64,000 nt of DNA from Lachnospiraceae bacterium (GTDB lineage Bacteria; Bacillota; Clostridia; Lachnospirales; Lachnospiraceae). The DNA lies in NCBI GenBank assembly GCA_022788085.1, contig JALEWA010000066.1, forward strand, positions 6,465 through 70,464, in the 5' to 3' direction. Below the pieces are notes generated by a model. That model made no database searches and was not told where the DNA came from. It was given only the letters and a program-made list of their open reading frames with translations. Of the stretch, positions 58,877 through 64,000 are shown piece by piece (position 1 is the stretch's first letter; each line of letters opens with the position of its first letter). The translations under genes and the position numbers were made by a program.

Positions 58877-60328
58877 ATGAGTACAGATAGATATGTAAGC
58901 CCATTATCAGAGCGTTATGCAAGCAAGGAAATGCAGTATATATTTTCACCGGATATGAAATTCAGAACATGGAGAAAGCTGTGGATCGCACTTGCTGAGA
59001 CAGAGATGGAGCTTGGACTTAGTGAAAATGGCAAACCGGTTATTTCACAGGAGCAGATTGATGAACTCAAGGCTCATGCAGAGGATATCAATTATGATGT
59101 TGCAAGAGAAAGAGAGAAACTGGTTCGTCATGATGTTATGAGCCATGTGTATGCATATGGACAGCAGTGCCCGAAGGCAGCAGGTATTATTCATCTTGGA
59201 GCAACCTCTTGTTATGTAGGTGATAATACAGATATCATCGTTATGAACGAGGCATTGAAGCTTGTTCATAAGAAGCTTGTAAATGTGATTGCCGAGCTTG
59301 CAAAGTTTGCAGAAAAATACAAGGATTTACCAACACTTGCATTTACCCATTTCCAGCCTGCACAGCCAACAACAGTTGGTAAGCGTGCAACGCTCTGGAC
59401 ACAGGAATTCTTAATGGATTTAGAAGATCTTGAGTATGTTATGAGCACTTTGAAACTTCTTGGTTCCAAGGGTACAACAGGAACACAGGCAAGCTTCCTG
59501 GAACTCTTTAATGGTGATCAGGAAACAATCGACAAGATTGATCCGATGATTGCAGCAAAGATGGGCTTCAAGGAGTGCTACGCAGTATCCGGACAGACTT
59601 ATTCCAGAAAGGTAGATACCAGAGTAGCTAACATCCTTGCAGGTATTGCAGCAAGTGCTCATAAAATGTCAAATGACATCAGACTGTTACAGCATTTGAA
59701 GGAAGTAGAAGAGCCGTTTGAGAAGAACCAGATTGGTTCCTCTGCTATGGCATATAAGAGAAATCCGATGAGAAGTGAGAGAATCGCGTCTCTGTCCAGA
59801 TATGTCATGATTGATGCGCTGAACCCTGCTATCACATCAGCAACACAGTGGTTTGAGAGAACTCTTGATGATTCTGCAAACAAGAGACTTTCCATTCCGG
59901 AAGGCTTCCTTGCAATCGATGGAATTCTTGACCTTTGCCTGAATGTCGTAGATGGTCTTGTTGTATATGACAAGGTTATTACAAAGCGTTTAATGTCAGA
60001 GCTTCCATTCATGGCAACAGAGAATATTATGATGGATGCCGTAAAGAACGGTGGAAACCGTCAGGAGCTTCATGAGAAGATTAGAACTCTTTCCATGGAA
60101 GCAGGAAAGAATGTAAAGCAGGAGGGTAAGGATAACAATCTCCTTGAATTAATTGCTGCTGATCCTGAATTCAACCTGACACTGGAAGAACTGCAGGCAA
60201 CGATGGACCCATCCAAGTATGTCGGACGTTCCCCATTACAGGTAGAGAACTTCTTAAAGAATGTAGTAAATCCGGTTCTTGAGACGAATAAGGATGAACT
60301 TGGCATGAAGGCTGAGATTAATGTATAA
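58877..60328 (+). CDS. purB: Adenylosuccinate lyase
   Basis: SPLSERY, RHDVMSH, THFQPAQPTT, GSSAMAYKRNP. Confidence 0.97.
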   Translation: MSTDRYVSPLSERYASKEMQYIFSPDMKFRTWRKLWIALAETEMELGLSENGKPVISQEQIDELKAHAEDINYDVAREREKLVRHDVMSHVYAYGQQCPKAAGIIHLGATSCYVGDNTDIIVMNEALKLVHKKLVNVIAELAKFAEKYKDLPTLAFTHFQPAQPTTVGKRATLWTQEFLMDLEDLEYVMSTLKLLGSKGTTGTQASFLELFNGDQETIDKIDPMIAAKMGFKECYAVSGQTYSRKVDTRVANILAGIAASAHKMSNDIRLLQHLKEVEEPFEKNQIGSSAMAYKRNPMRSERIASLSRYVMIDALNPAITSATQWFERTLDDSANKRLSIPEGFLAIDGILDLCLNVVDGLVVYDKVITKRLMSELPFMATENIMMDAVKNGGNRQELHEKIRTLSMEAGKNVKQEGKDNNLLELIAADPEFNLTLEELQATMDPSKYVGRSPLQVENFLKNVVNPVLETNKDELGMKAEINV

Positions 60329-60336
60329 GAAATAGA

Positions 60337-60379
60337 AAAAGATAAGGGACATCTTTCTTAACGATAGATGTCTCTTTTT
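60337..60379 (+). terminator. Terminator after purB
   Basis: GGGACATCT...AGATGTCTC followed by TTTTT. Confidence 0.7.
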
Positions 60380-60427
60380 GTGTATGGTGACAGTAATGGT
60401 ATTATAGACAGAATGGTAAGAGGGAAA

Positions 60428-60585
60428 CATCGAAAATCTCATCTTATGTTTATATCGATGCTGTTTTCTTCATTTTTAGAGCAAATCAACATCGATAAAT
60501 GGCAAATAAACAAATTCCGATGCTGATAATTGAAAAAATAGCGTTTTTGAGCATCGAAAAAATTCCTATAAGCTATTATCGATGC
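60428..60585. repeat. Phased array of three inverted motifs, 62-bp period
   Basis: CATCGA at 60428, 60490 and 60552, each followed after exactly 21 nt by (T/C)CGATGC (60455, 60517, 60579). Confidence 0.85.
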
Positions 60586-60715
60586 AAAACAGATAAAAAC
60601 TCATTTAATGTAATCTTGTCTTAGTATATCGTACATGATAAAATAGTACTTAAGTATGGACATATATTCTTGAAAAAAATAATAGTATATAAAATTCGTT
60701 AGACAAAAGTTTTGT

Positions 60716-61591
60716 ATGAAGGGAGTTTTAGCATATACAATGAAGGACATGAATGAAGAACGTAAAAAGCAAAATATTAGTTCTAATATTAATGTTTCAA
60801 ATTATAAAGATTCTAGGACTGAAAAAATGTTACAACGTATTAAAAAGTTTCGATTATTAGACGATGATTTTATGATAGTGTGTTTTGAGAATAATATAGA
60901 GGCAACAGAATTAGTACTTAGTATTATTCTTGAGAAGCCTGATATTATTGTAAAGACTGTGCAAACACAGTATACTATGAAGAATATCAAAGGGCGTTCT
61001 GTACGACTTGACATCTATGCAACAGATGCAGATAATAAAAAGTACAATATAGAAATACAAAGAGCAGACAAAGGTGCTGGAGCTAAGAGAGCAAGATATA
61101 ATAGTAGTCTTATAGACAGCAATATTATTCCTGCTGGTTCTGATATAGAAGACTTACCGGAAACATTTGTCATTTTTATTACTGAAAATGATGTACTTGG
61201 AAAAGGAAAATCAATATATCATATTAATAGGTATATTGAAGAGATTGGTGAGTATTTTAATGATGGCTCACACATTATATATGTAAATGCAGCTACCACA
61301 GAGAAAACAGCACTGGGTCAACTTATGTCTGACTTTAGAGCTACAACGGCTGATGAGATGAAGAATAAAGTACTTGCAGATACAGTAAGACATTTCAAAG
61401 AAGATGAGGAAGGAGTTAGCGTTATGTGTAAAATAATGGAAGAAGTAAAAGCAGAAGGCGAAATTATAGGTAAAGTTAAATTATTATATCAGGATTTTGG
61501 AATGTCAATTTCTGATATAGCAATAAAGTTAAGAATTTCTAATGAAGAGGTAGAGAAGATTGTTAAGGAAGAAATACTATGTGTAAAATGA
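60716..61591 (+). CDS. Rpn family recombination-promoting nuclease / PD-(D/E)XK 'putative transposase'
   Basis: LLDDDF, VRLDIYATD, YNIEIQ, RARYNSSLID, FVIFITEND, IIYVN; variable C-terminal HTH-like tail. Start codon is uncertain (60716 or 60740). Confidence 0.88.
   Translation: MKGVLAYTMKDMNEERKKQNISSNINVSNYKDSRTEKMLQRIKKFRLLDDDFMIVCFENNIEATELVLSIILEKPDIIVKTVQTQYTMKNIKGRSVRLDIYATDADNKKYNIEIQRADKGAGAKRARYNSSLIDSNIIPAGSDIEDLPETFVIFITENDVLGKGKSIYHINRYIEEIGEYFNDGSHIIYVNAATTEKTALGQLMSDFRATTADEMKNKVLADTVRHFKEDEEGVSVMCKIMEEVKAEGEIIGKVKLLYQDFGMSISDIAIKLRISNEEVEKIVKEEILCVK
61424..61591 (+). CDS. Putative intragenic RpnS antitoxin (55 aa, in frame within Rpn)
   Basis: AAGGAG at 61410-61415, 8 nt before an in-frame ATG at 61424 (MCKIMEEVKAEG...). 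Confidence 0.6.
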   Translation: MCKIMEEVKAEGEIIGKVKLLYQDFGMSISDIAIKLRISNEEVEKIVKEEILCVK

Positions 61592-61704
61592 CGGAAGAAG
61601 TGAAAGCAGTCTATTACTGACATTTCTAAAGCTGCAGAGCTAACAGAAGAGCAAACTCTTGAGAAAATAATAGTATATAATTTCCATCAAAAGGAGGAAT
61701 TCAA

Positions 61705-62460
61705 ATGAAGAGAACAAATTTAGTTAACAAATCAGTAAAGTTATTAATGTCAGTCATCATTGCCAGCAGTGTTGTTGCGATGGGCTCAAATGGCACAGTC
61801 GCTGCAACACTAACAAATAATGACGCAATCATTTCAAGTATTGTTATGGCAGCTGAGACAACACCACTTCCTAAGCAATGGTCTACGGCTGAGGTGTATA
61901 AAGACGCTCGGTATGGTGAGACATGGTCAGGTGAAATGGCAGGTGGTTCTTATGTATCTTGGAAGTGGCTTAATGATCAGAGTTATGTATTTTCAACAGA
62001 GGGTGTTACAACAAACAATGGAACTAATTTAAACTTTCAGTGGTTAATTCCAGTAGATATGACTCAAAGTGGTTCTCATGATACATACTACTCTCATACT
62101 GATAACAATGAACCTATTCGGAAATGGTTTAGGGTAAGTAAAGATAAATATTCAGAAGGCGATCACTTATGGAATCATTTAGTAGACTATTTACAGTTAA
62201 TACAGAGCTGGGATTACATTATAGAGGCAGGTAATACTTATTTACAGACAAATGAGGATGAAAATTTTTGTAGATATACTCTTAATGTAACACAGCGCAA
62301 TGATGCATATGGTACAATTCAAAAAGGTTATTGTACTATTATAGAAGTAAAGGCAACTGGTGAAGAATATACTTTCTGGTATGAGGAGCAAGAAGAATAT
62401 GTTGATTTAAATCGGGCTCTTACAGTTATCTACAGCTGTTTACCCGTTATACAGAAATAA
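61705..62460 (+). CDS. Secreted hypothetical protein
   Basis: SD AAGGAGG; signal-peptide-like N-terminus; AT-rich codon usage. Confidence 0.75.
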   Translation: MKRTNLVNKSVKLLMSVIIASSVVAMGSNGTVAATLTNNDAIISSIVMAAETTPLPKQWSTAEVYKDARYGETWSGEMAGGSYVSWKWLNDQSYVFSTEGVTTNNGTNLNFQWLIPVDMTQSGSHDTYYSHTDNNEPIRKWFRVSKDKYSEGDHLWNHLVDYLQLIQSWDYIIEAGNTYLQTNEDENFCRYTLNVTQRNDAYGTIQKGYCTIIEVKATGEEYTFWYEEQEEYVDLNRALTVIYSCLPVIQK

Positions 62461-62478
62461 TTGATTAATAAAGTATAT

Positions 62479-62510
62479 AAGATACCTTTCCTATTGAAGG
62501 GTATCTTTTT
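62479..62510 (+). terminator. Intrinsic terminator
   Basis: AAGATACCTTTC...GAAGGGTATCTT plus T run. Confidence 0.75.
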
Positions 62511-62531
62511 ATATGTAAAGGAGTTGATAAA

Positions 62532-64000
62532 TTGAAAAAGAAACTATCAAAAGTGCTACCACGGTTGTTAGCACTTTTTCTTATTTTAACAATGGTAATG
62601 ACACTTAATGTAGTTCAACTAATAGCTGCTCCTACAGGAACATCAGATTCAGTTAAAGATGCTATTGGTAATAATCAAACCGCCAATGGTGCTAATCCAG
62701 ATGGTACACAAACAATAGTAGGCGCTAAAGTATCTAACTTACCTAAAGACCCAAATTGTGATGGATATTCAATACAGGGTGTTATGATTCGACTGGTATC
62801 ATTTGATAACACAGCGCAAGGTGAGGAATATCAGAAATACATAGCAGAGTACAATCAGTCACTTGATGTTAAAAGTAAGATTAGTGAATGTCAGATGTCT
62901 GCAATTGATAAATACTTATATACGTATCCAGCAGAATTTATCAGTAATCCAAATGTTGTCAATGAATGTGCATTGATATTTCAGAGAGGTGATAAGCCAT
63001 ATGGAATGAGTACTATAAATTCTCATGGAAAGCCTGTCGCTTATAAGACAGGAGATGGATATGTATCCACAGAGTATTTTAAGAATGTGTATGATGTTAA
63101 GCTTAATAGTGGTTCAAGCTATCCATGGTTTCCGGCACATTTAGCTTATGAACAACTTGCACATAATGAAGCTTATCGTACAGCTTTCTTTAATGGTGAA
63201 TTAACTTATGATGCAGTGAAGGCTATAGTTGATACTAATCATATTGAAGATGCTAAGAAGAATATTTTAGCACTATTTGAAAATACTTCCAGGATAGGTG
63301 ATATGTTGGGTGGTATCTGGACAAATGCACAGAATGCCAAAGACGAATTAGGCAGACCAATTGAAGACGTATACCGTTTATTCTATCTTGACATGCTTCT
63401 CGCCATTGATTATTTGTGTGGCGAAGGTACATTCAGAAGTGAGATAGATACATACTTGAAATATCTAAACAAGAATGGCGCCGATAAATTCACAATACCC
63501 ATTATGGCAAATGTTATGATATTCCGTAAGACTGGTGGTGATGGTGTAGCATGGGCATCCACTTTACCGGATTATTACGGCTGGATTTCGGGTAAAGGTG
63601 CAAATACATTTGCAACAATGGAAACACTTGGAGGAAAGACAAAATCCTATCTTCAAAAGAAAGATGATGGGAGAGAGGATTTGAAAACTCATTACGATAG
63701 CCAAACACAAAATTGGTGGGGGAAGTATGAAGACCTTTTACCAACCAAGGCACCTGTAGGTAAAGAGGAATGGTATAGACGTAGATTATGGTGGACGAGT
63801 ATAGCTGGTGATGCAAATGCATCACAGGAAAACTGGGCAAATGCATTCGGCTTATTACCAACAGACTGTTTTGGTCAGGCAACAGGTAATATCGGTTATA
63901 CATACCTCGCTCTTGGTGGAGGTTCTGGAACTGAGCCAGCACTCCCATTCAAATTAACAGCACAGTCAAGTCAGACAGAAGTAGAGCCGGGCAGTAAGGT
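62532..64000 (+). CDS. Large secreted/surface protein, 3'-truncated by the window edge (absent from the ORF track)
   Basis: SD AAGGAG, TTG at 62532, signal peptide MKKKLSKVLPRLLALFLILTMVMTLNVVQLIAA; my manual translation finds no stop to base 64000. Confidence 0.8.
   Translation, partial: MKKKLSKVLPRLLALFLILTMVMTLNVVQLIAAPTGTSDSVKDAIGNNQTANGANPDGTQTIVGAKVSNLPKDPNCDGYSIQGVMIRLVSFDNTAQGEEYQKYIAEYNQSLDVKSKISECQMSAIDKYLYTYPAEFISNPNVVNECALIFQRGDKPYGMSTINSHGKPVAYKTGDGYVSTEYFKNVYDVKLNSGSSYPWFPAHLAYEQLAHNEAYRTAFFNGELTYDAVKAIVDTNHIEDAKKNILALFENTSRIGDMLGGIWTNAQNAKDELGRPIEDVYRLFYLDMLLAIDYLCGEGTFRSEIDTYLKYLNKNGADKFTIPIMANVMIFRKTGGDGVAWASTLPDYYGWISGKGANTFATMETLGGKTKSYLQKKDDGREDLKTHYDSQTQNWWGKYEDLLPTKAPVGKEEWYRRRLWWTSIAGDANASQENWANAFGLLPTDCFGQATGNIGYTYLALGGGSGTEPALPFKLTAQSSQTEVEPGSK

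Follow-up and report, generated by a model that had tools for sequence, protein, structure and literature searches.

The stretch analysed here (the window) is 64,000 nucleotides of a Lachnospiraceae genome (GenBank assembly GCA_022788085.1, contig JALEWA010000066.1), and it contains a short array of three inverted repeats of the half-site CATCGA, located between purB and a gene for an Rpn-like nuclease. This array is almost certainly an orphan, truncated member of a family of dispersed intergenic arrays, to which we refer by their half-site, CATCGR. Arrays of the family recur upstream of genes for an unannotated protein of ~275 residues, typically as a single gene-linked copy in each genome; the C-terminal domain of the protein is modelled as a PD-(D/E)XK nuclease fold. 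Judging from their linkage, specificity and co-occurrence, the CATCGR arrays are likely the cognate DNA of one such protein, encoded outside the window on contig C86 of the same genome (C-numbers denote contigs of the window's own genome), and we favour a reading in which the C86-type protein binds the inverted half-sites of the orphan copy as duplex DNA. Searches of the published literature by arm sequence and by keyword found no description of the element, and the partnership of a phased array with a nuclease-like protein is apparently previously undescribed.

The window array is a truncated copy of a dispersed element

Direct inspection and a pattern search of the window reproduce the geometry described in the initial annotation of this DNA: three units match CATCGA-N21-YCGATG, their starts lie exactly 62 bp apart and the gaps between them are 29 nt. 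The unit ends read (A/G)CATCGA...YCGATGC. Dinucleotide-preserving shuffling of the window gives a chance expectation of 0.02 matches, and the observed count was not attained in any of 100 shuffles. Tandem Repeats Finder makes no call in this region, because within the array only the 6-7-bp arm ends repeat. A covariance search of window positions 59500-62000 against Rfam 15 gave no relevant match at E ≤ 10, in agreement with the earlier statement that no named feature explains the array.

In the genome as a whole the pattern is matched 44 + 40 times, and a reversed control pattern 0/1 times. The matches resolve into 17 strict arrays, each of 2-5 units with a period of 61-63 bp, and a profile search (nhmmer, with a profile built from six full-length copies) raises the total to about 20 loci. 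Alignment of the copies defines a full element of ~230 bp composed of four modules, A-B-C-D, occasionally with one extra module. The arms GCATCGA/TCGATGC are common to every module; the loop and spacer are particular to each module and conserved across loci. The 3′ end of the element reads ...TCGATGCAAAAYRG. The window copy (C19:66883-67056, equivalent to window positions 60419-60592) matches model positions 57-230 with an E-value of 4.9e-38, and so comprises modules B, C and D with module A missing. Its second unit has A opposite C at the innermost arm position, which is typical of module C in the other copies. Because the window copy fits modules B-C-D of the profile, the intervening cores are position-specific family sequence. 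They had initially been described as unrelated DNA, which is correct within the window array but not between loci, as each core matches the corresponding module in ~19 other copies.

All copies in the genome are intergenic. The orientation of orphans relative to the genes downstream of them is about even, with 8 aligned with the gene and 9 against it, and we rejected a directional cis-regulatory role on these numbers. By eye, the neighbours of the orphans are ordinary housekeeping genes. A single IS66-like transposase is found among 20 flanking genes, and the orphans have no general tie to mobile DNA.

Arrays recur across Lachnospiraceae with one protein family

A two-unit version of the pattern was detected in one other genome of the same genus among 40 relatives. 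A scan of one genome per prokaryote species returned at least 111 array stretches from at least 50 assemblies, almost all of them Lachnospiraceae: Agathobacter, Blautia, Butyrivibrio, Acetatifactor, Roseburia and many unnamed metagenome-assembled genomes (MAGs). A Pyrinomonadaceae MAG (Acidobacteriota; L078) yielded a single two-unit match in a genome that lacks the protein homologue, and this match is probably due to chance. Among the matches listed, the unit spacing is 62 bp in 133 cases and 63 bp in 102 cases, where at least one unit pair per locus had to satisfy the search pattern. Some genomes have homogeneous tandem arrays of up to 10 units, in which whole 62-63-bp units are near-identical.

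We clustered all open reading frames (ORFs) located within 1.2 kb of the arrays. One family, of ~275-residue proteins, adjoins the arrays in 14 of the 111 loci among the matches listed, and the next-commonest family does so in at most 7. The start of the ~275-residue gene is typically 50-200 bp after the array. The pattern search and neighbour tabulation proposed in the initial annotation have thus recovered both similar phased arrays elsewhere and a recurrent gene family. That family is not Rpn, which had been suggested as a recurrent neighbour, but a different and unannotated PD-(D/E)XK protein.

The window's own genome encodes three homologues of this protein. One (C86:647->3, cut by the contig end) is directly behind a CATCGR array at C86:711-938, which is of the same type as the window copy. 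A second (C173:8281-9081) is behind an array of a different kind, TTACGTG-N25-CACGTAA (C173:7834-8200), with a period of 73 bp, or seven turns of the helix. TTACGTG arrays also occur as orphans (C31:5146-5330, C31:37069-37330, C177:2573-2760, C199:9172-9290 and C223:7458-7640, with a variant at C49:16796-16980), and so both array-bearing paralogues of this genome have orphan arrays. The third homologue (C71:37902-38678) lacks an array and is preceded by a comEC-like gene.

In one CATCGR orphan, C198:14320-14669, modules C and D have the same degenerate arms (CAACAA, CAACGA) as in the gene-linked copy at C86:650-940, and the two loci also agree over ~25 bp after module D. This resemblance suggests that the orphan was copied from the C86 locus.

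The association extends beyond immediate adjacency. Of 401 Lachnospiraceae genera sampled, 105 encode homologues, with 1-6 copies to a genome, and full-length homologues are present in 6 of 24 other species of the window's genus. Among assemblies with CATCGR arrays, 38 of 50 encode the family, compared with the 105 of 401 sampled genera (76% vs 26%; Fisher p 9e-12). The gene is absent from the fetched stretch in 36 array assemblies; 24 of these encode the family elsewhere, and several of the genes found elsewhere again adjoin CATCGR arrays. The position of the array is also conserved: counting Tandem Repeats Finder arrays of at least 2.5 units, arrays are upstream of the gene at 22 of 34 loci and downstream at 4 of 33 (p 1e-5). 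The arm sequence upstream of homologues differs per lineage, and includes AATACGGAG, GACGGAAAA, ACTACGG, CCGACCG, TTACGTG and others.

Some individual loci show further arrangements. At L251:779-2490 (G442), the gene has CATCGR units of one orientation on either side, four upstream of it and two immediately behind it, which would fit a gene that resides inside an array or is bracketed by its own repeats. In L141 (G013; 1187-1250) and L142 (G019; 761-825), ~60 bp immediately upstream of the arrays are conserved between the two species, the array units of which differ (…TTAGAAGGRTATCAGTTTYCWGGGGGCTGTATKTAGTMATGTATTATGTT…); the conserved segment may represent a promoter or mark the boundary of the array. 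A comEC-adjacent paralogue lineage is present in several genera, and in L145 (G022) and L192 (G128) a 53-54-bp array is located between comEC and the gene.

The partner protein has a predicted PD-(D/E)XK nuclease fold

The ~275-residue protein has no match in Pfam or NCBIfam, and a PDB sequence search returned no relative. Over residues 145-268 the protein matches the PADLOC candidate PDC-S68 at its C-terminus (1e-29), and the same region also matches endonuclease and resolvase families in PHROG. Homologues form at least 1020 clusters in a large protein collection, in which the few source-named ones are called "hypothetical protein".

The AlphaFold (AF2) model, calculated with a 40-sequence alignment, has a mean predicted local distance difference test (pLDDT) score of 90. 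The modelled chain begins with a helix, followed by a three-stranded sheet, a long helix of 45 residues and a C-terminal α/β domain. Foldseek matches to the model are PD-(D/E)XK nucleases only: Bax1, the DrdV nuclease domain, the R2 restriction-like endonuclease and cap-snatching endonucleases (probabilities up to 0.99, E about 4e-3). The modelled C-terminal domain is accordingly of the PD-(D/E)XK nuclease fold. Residues K165, E167, D198, E213 and H214 are invariant in the 40-sequence alignment, which makes it plausible that the protein is, as predicted, an active nuclease.

Array periods follow the helical repeat and arms behave as half-sites

The 64 arrays found upstream of homologues have periods of 41, 52-54 (23 arrays), 61-64 (21), 71-77 (16), 83 and 94 bp. 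In a scan of moduli from 7 to 16 bp, the best fit is at 10.3-10.5 bp, and at 10.5 bp the phase is +0.2 bp with R 0.85. A cluster-level simulation with random cluster centres attained this fit in ~1 of 10,000 trials (p about 1e-4). The step of one turn can also be seen between closely related units. The CATCGR-N21-YCGATG unit occurs with spacers of 29/30 nt or 40 nt, and a single array (L262:896-1240; G464) has its 33-bp CATCGR unit at spacings of 63, 73, 73 and 62 bp. L150 (period 62) and L152 (period 73) have the arms AAAGCATCA/TGATGCTTT in common, and a single segment accounts for the 11 bp by which they differ. On the protein tree, poorly resolved as it is, period classes are interleaved. 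It is the total period, and not the spacer alone, that equals whole turns whatever the size of the inverted repeat, which argues against extruded hairpins. These comparative data, with family periods stepping by 10.5 bp, favour the initial proposal of a protein-binding platform on one face of the helix. Its other suggestion, of arm-type or relaxosome-like sites, is unsupported.

In 391 distinct CATCGR units, both arms have the half-site RCATCGRAAW in common. The purine/pyrimidine position 6 varies independently between the arms (G-C 123, G.T 113, A.C 90 and A-T 65 units), so A.C is present in 23% of units, and what remains of the CATCGR "stem" is 5-6 bp with a loop of 21-23 nt. When right arms were shuffled within arrays (326 CATCGR units), the number of Watson-Crick pairs was not lowered at any variable position. 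Stem mismatches within arrays include 4 compensated pairs of 721, and there is accordingly no positive evidence for selection on a stem. In degenerate copies, the variant half-site CACCGA is distributed regardless of pairing.

Proposed mechanism

We lean towards a model in which the array is a duplex, one-face array of phased inverted half-sites on which the protein would assemble cooperatively. Protein dimers would bind each inverted pair, with centres ~27-32 bp apart. The six-turn period of 62-63 bp, which other lineages replace by one of five or seven turns, would set all units on one face of the helix, and we propose that proteins bound there could for this reason assemble cooperatively. 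By analogy with the repeat-enzyme systems discussed below, the gene-proximal array may serve in autoregulation, as a substrate of the enzyme, or both, and nuclease-provoked breaks followed by repair may copy whole arrays to new intergenic places and homogenise their units. The C86 copy, directly upstream of its putative cognate gene, would be the "master" copy.

More tentatively, the arrays and their proteins could constitute an undescribed class of repeat-enzyme system. In it, a restriction-fold protein would polymerise on one face of the duplex along arrays of inverted half-sites with a period of 5, 6 or 7 turns, and its nuclease would spread and homogenise the arrays. Orphans might then be hot spots of recombination or insertion, for example at the island edge of the window, or a chromatin-like, protein-bound feature of Lachnospiraceae genomes.

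Alternative readings

A different account takes the units to be hairpins, extruded as single-stranded DNA or as cruciforms, that are recognised by a structure-specific nuclease or a transposase-like enzyme, with cuts during replication or uptake spreading the arrays. It would explain the adjacency of one paralogue lineage to comEC, the weak PHROG similarity of the nuclease domain to Holliday-junction resolvases, and the array-flanked gene of L251, as genes for REP-associated tyrosine transposases (RAYTs; REP, repetitive extragenic palindrome) and ssnA genes are often flanked by repeats on both sides (PMC11893778). The system would in that case be a true functional counterpart of REP/RAYT or Ssn/NTS. 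This account also draws on arms of 7-10 bp that differ wholly between systems yet are always complementary. We regard it as unlikely, since whole-turn total periods are expected of linear B-DNA and not of extruded hairpins, the variable arm positions of CATCGR units show no unit-level covariation, A.C combinations leave only a short stem around a long loop, and the CACCGA variants ignore pairing. Still less probable is a role for the array as a transcribed RNA acting on the protein, either as in a type III toxin-antitoxin system or as a structured leader, with orphans as extra RNA copies. The layout does resemble the type III loci (ToxIN, CptIN, TenpIN), in which paralogue-specific tandem direct repeats likewise immediately precede a nuclease gene and have the same orientation as it. 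The type III toxin is a ToxN/AbiQ/CptN-type endoribonuclease, whereas the profile and fold matches here are to PD-(D/E)XK only, and units here are 53-75 bp as against 34-45 nt. The window array folds better than its shuffles, with z about -3, but both strands do so equally, there is no unique fold, and arms of adjacent units pair promiscuously. In favour of this role, most arrays are purine-rich on the gene-sense strand and sense-strand G.T mismatches exceed A.C; against it, this genome's own CATCGR element is not rich in purines and has no Rfam match. No terminator was seen between array and gene in 22 array-gene gaps, and several loci have promoter-like sites downstream of the array. Unlike in type III loci, orphans are found in either orientation to neighbouring genes, and unit length is quantised at 10.5 nt, the DNA helical repeat, for which there is no RNA rationale.

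That the arrays are passive satellite DNA, similar to miniature inverted-repeat transposable elements, with the gene as a hitch-hiker or preferred insertion site, would agree with the many orphans beside housekeeping genes and with the arrays in genomes without a detectable gene. We hold this to be highly improbable given that arms are paralogue-specific and the orphans of a genome match its resident gene-linked array, that co-occurrence is strong, and that the upstream position is conserved; moreover, a period repeatedly re-set to whole helical turns implies selection on geometry. Least credible of all are the suggestions that the array comprises sites for the adjacent Rpn-like protein or is a degenerate CRISPR-like array, both of which had been raised in the initial annotation and for which we give almost no weight. 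An Rpn-like gene does adjoin the window array, but it does so at 1 of ~20 copies. By tblastn, the sole relative of the Rpn-like protein in this genome is distant and partial (32% identity over 120 residues, contig C122), and we rejected the Rpn link because no other array locus is beside either gene. The geometry of ~33-bp units and 29-bp gaps is indeed CRISPR-like. A CRISPR array was nevertheless rejected: the cores and gaps, or "spacers", are conserved over ~20 loci, and whole 62-63-bp units repeat in other genomes. No cas genes are beside the window array, where the neighbours are purB and PDDEXK_2, and no cas-like family is enriched near the 111 array loci among the matches listed.

Several observations weigh against duplex binding by the PD-(D/E)XK protein and the spread of its arrays, or limit how far that reading can be taken. 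No target-site duplications were seen at the ends of full-length copies and no empty site was found, so that mobility of the element is deduced from its dispersal only. The period quantisation depends on few length classes, and the protein tree, on which the period switches repeatedly, is poorly resolved. The 7-10-bp arms of non-CATCGR arrays are wholly different between systems, and a hairpin recognised by structure would give the same. In these arrays G.T mismatches outnumber A.C on the gene-sense strand by 37 to 18 (p 0.014), and that strand is mostly purine-rich, which hints at a role for the transcribed strand. Across systems, the arm-to-arm distance within a unit ranges from ~21 to 35 bp, a spread that a single rigid dimer geometry does not easily accommodate. 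Finally, 12 of the 50 CATCGR-array assemblies yielded no homologue, including three isolates and one probable chance match.

The purB-purA island and other features

The array is located as originally described, between the purB terminator and the Rpn-like gene at a shift in composition, as seen from ORFs, the hairpin, Pfam and GC content (Table 1). It follows purF and purB, the latter ending at 60328, and past this point GC content falls from ~0.42 to 0.27-0.36. In most of the fetched relatives of the same genus, purA is directly after purB with a gap of roughly 25-300 bp. Here, purA starts at C19:73052 and the two genes are separated by an island of ~6.2 kb. This low-GC interval, where relatives have adjacent genes, sets the array 90 bp inside the island's left edge, which bears out its description as lying at an island border. 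Besides the array and the PDDEXK_2 gene, the island has at least two ORFs that match nothing in Pfam (61705-62460 and 62532->).

Table 1 Features of the window array and its surroundings (window coordinates).
Feature	Position	Strand	Basis or detail
Array element, orphan, 5′-truncated, modules B-C-D	60419..60592	+ (A->D)	Profile match
Unit 1 (module B)	60428..60460	.	CATCGA-N21-TCGATG inverted half-site pair
Unit 2 (module C)	60490..60522	.	CATCGA-N21-CCGATG inverted half-site pair
Unit 3 (module D)	60552..60584	.	GCATCGA-N21-TCGATGC, then conserved element tail CAAAACAG to 60592
purB (adenylosuccinate lyase), last conserved gene ahead of island	58877..60328	+	ORF; same-genus proteins 82-95% identical
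Terminator-like hairpin AAGGGACATCTTTC/GATAGATGTCTCTT then T-run, 3′ of purB	60344..60381	+	Inverted-repeat list and sequence
Promoter-like site TTGTCT-17-TAAAAT with TG, between array and Rpn-like gene	60616..60644	+	Consensus scan only
PD-(D/E)XK_2 / Rpn-like gene, neighbour of array	60716..61591	+	Pfam PF12784, E 1e-11
Low-GC island, left part	60329..64000	.	Extends past window to C19:73051 (~window 66587)

The inverted-repeat part of the hairpin behind purB spans 60344-60376. A consensus terminator scan did not call this hairpin, and the consensus promoter and terminator scan of the window region returned nothing decisive. Five related contigs came up in a metagenome scan with the 3′ end of purB, and in each of them purB is followed by a different gene: the site after purB is variable between relatives. 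No empty site of the same species was found among these five contigs. The window copy probably has no dedicated role for purB or for the Rpn-like gene.

Two further periodic hairpin arrays were noticed in this genome, both unlinked to any examined gene. The array at C150:10996-11330 has arms TCACAC, a period of 66-67 bp and five units; its 67-bp period misfits n × 10.5. The array at C225:139-360 has arms GGGCAT, a period of 72-73 bp and three units.

Relation to known systems

The concept of a dispersed palindromic repeat with a cognate enzyme is already known from two systems. In the REP/BIME (bacterial interspersed mosaic element; REPIN)-RAYT (TnpA-REP) system of Proteobacteria, as here, short palindromic units are dispersed between genes and often clustered at fixed spacing, one or a few cognate enzyme genes per genome are located beside copies of their own repeats, and paralogues have different repeats with separate repeat populations. 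The arrangement of an enzyme gene beside its own repeats, with the repeats dispersed in the same genome, is thus common to both. The RAYT enzyme is an IS200/IS605-type HUH Y1 transposase, whereas the protein here has a PD-(D/E)XK fold and no Pfam match. Unlike REPs, which are hairpins with a conserved 5′ tetranucleotide, the units described here form tandem arrays at whole-helical-turn periods and have arms that behave independently, as duplex half-sites; their hosts are Lachnospiraceae (Firmicutes).

The second system comprises the Ssn GIY-YIG single-strand nucleases and their NTS/SRM repeats (Chenal et al. 2025, PMC11893778). Here too a many-copy repeat family is statistically tied to a small nuclease gene flanked by its own repeats, each homologue has its repeat variant, and the statistics published for that association are similar in kind to ours. 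The comEC adjacency of one paralogue lineage, comEC being a DNA-uptake gene, recalls the link of Ssn/NTS to transformation. The nuclease is GIY-YIG in that system and PD-(D/E)XK in this one, and NTS are single hairpins cut as single-stranded DNA, in contrast to phased tandem arrays whose geometry points to putative duplex binding. What differs here from both precedents is the PD-(D/E)XK enzyme class, the tandem arrays, and the helical-turn rule with arms that resemble duplex half-sites.

Other likenesses are more partial. Like the BOX elements of Streptococcus pneumoniae (boxA-boxB(n)-boxC), the array element is non-coding, modular, dispersed and intergenic; both are a few hundred bp long, vary in the number of their internal modules and have potential secondary structure. 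The modules of BOX do not each contain a common inverted half-site, as the modules of the element described here do, and we know of no cognate protein gene for BOX and of no reported helical-turn periodicity. Plasmid centromeres offer a parallel in geometry: sopC of F consists of 12 × 43-bp units, in each of which SopB binds a 7-bp inverted repeat, parC/ParR likewise forms a plasmid centromere, and such arrays assemble a cooperative nucleoprotein complex. The arrays described here are similar in having tandem inverted-repeat units at about whole helical turns beside the gene for a putative binding protein. They are unlike sopC and parC in that they are chromosomal and dispersed, no ParA or ParM partner gene was seen, and the protein has a nuclease fold and not that of ParB or a ribbon-helix-helix protein.

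Implications

For the window itself the message is modest: the array is a stray copy that probably regulates neither purB nor the Rpn-like gene. For the annotation of Lachnospiraceae genomes, arrays of this kind explain one class of CRISPR-like false positives and of assembly breaks. If the proposed reading is true, PD-(D/E)XK proteins would be the third enzyme class found in partnerships of a repeat with a cognate nuclease, after RAYT/HUH and Ssn/GIY-YIG, and the paralogues would represent natural orthogonal pairs of protein and half-site that follow a geometric rule of n × 10.5 bp. About a quarter of the sampled genera of Lachnospiraceae, dominant bacteria of the gut and rumen, hold this unannotated family, often as several paralogues, each with its own array.

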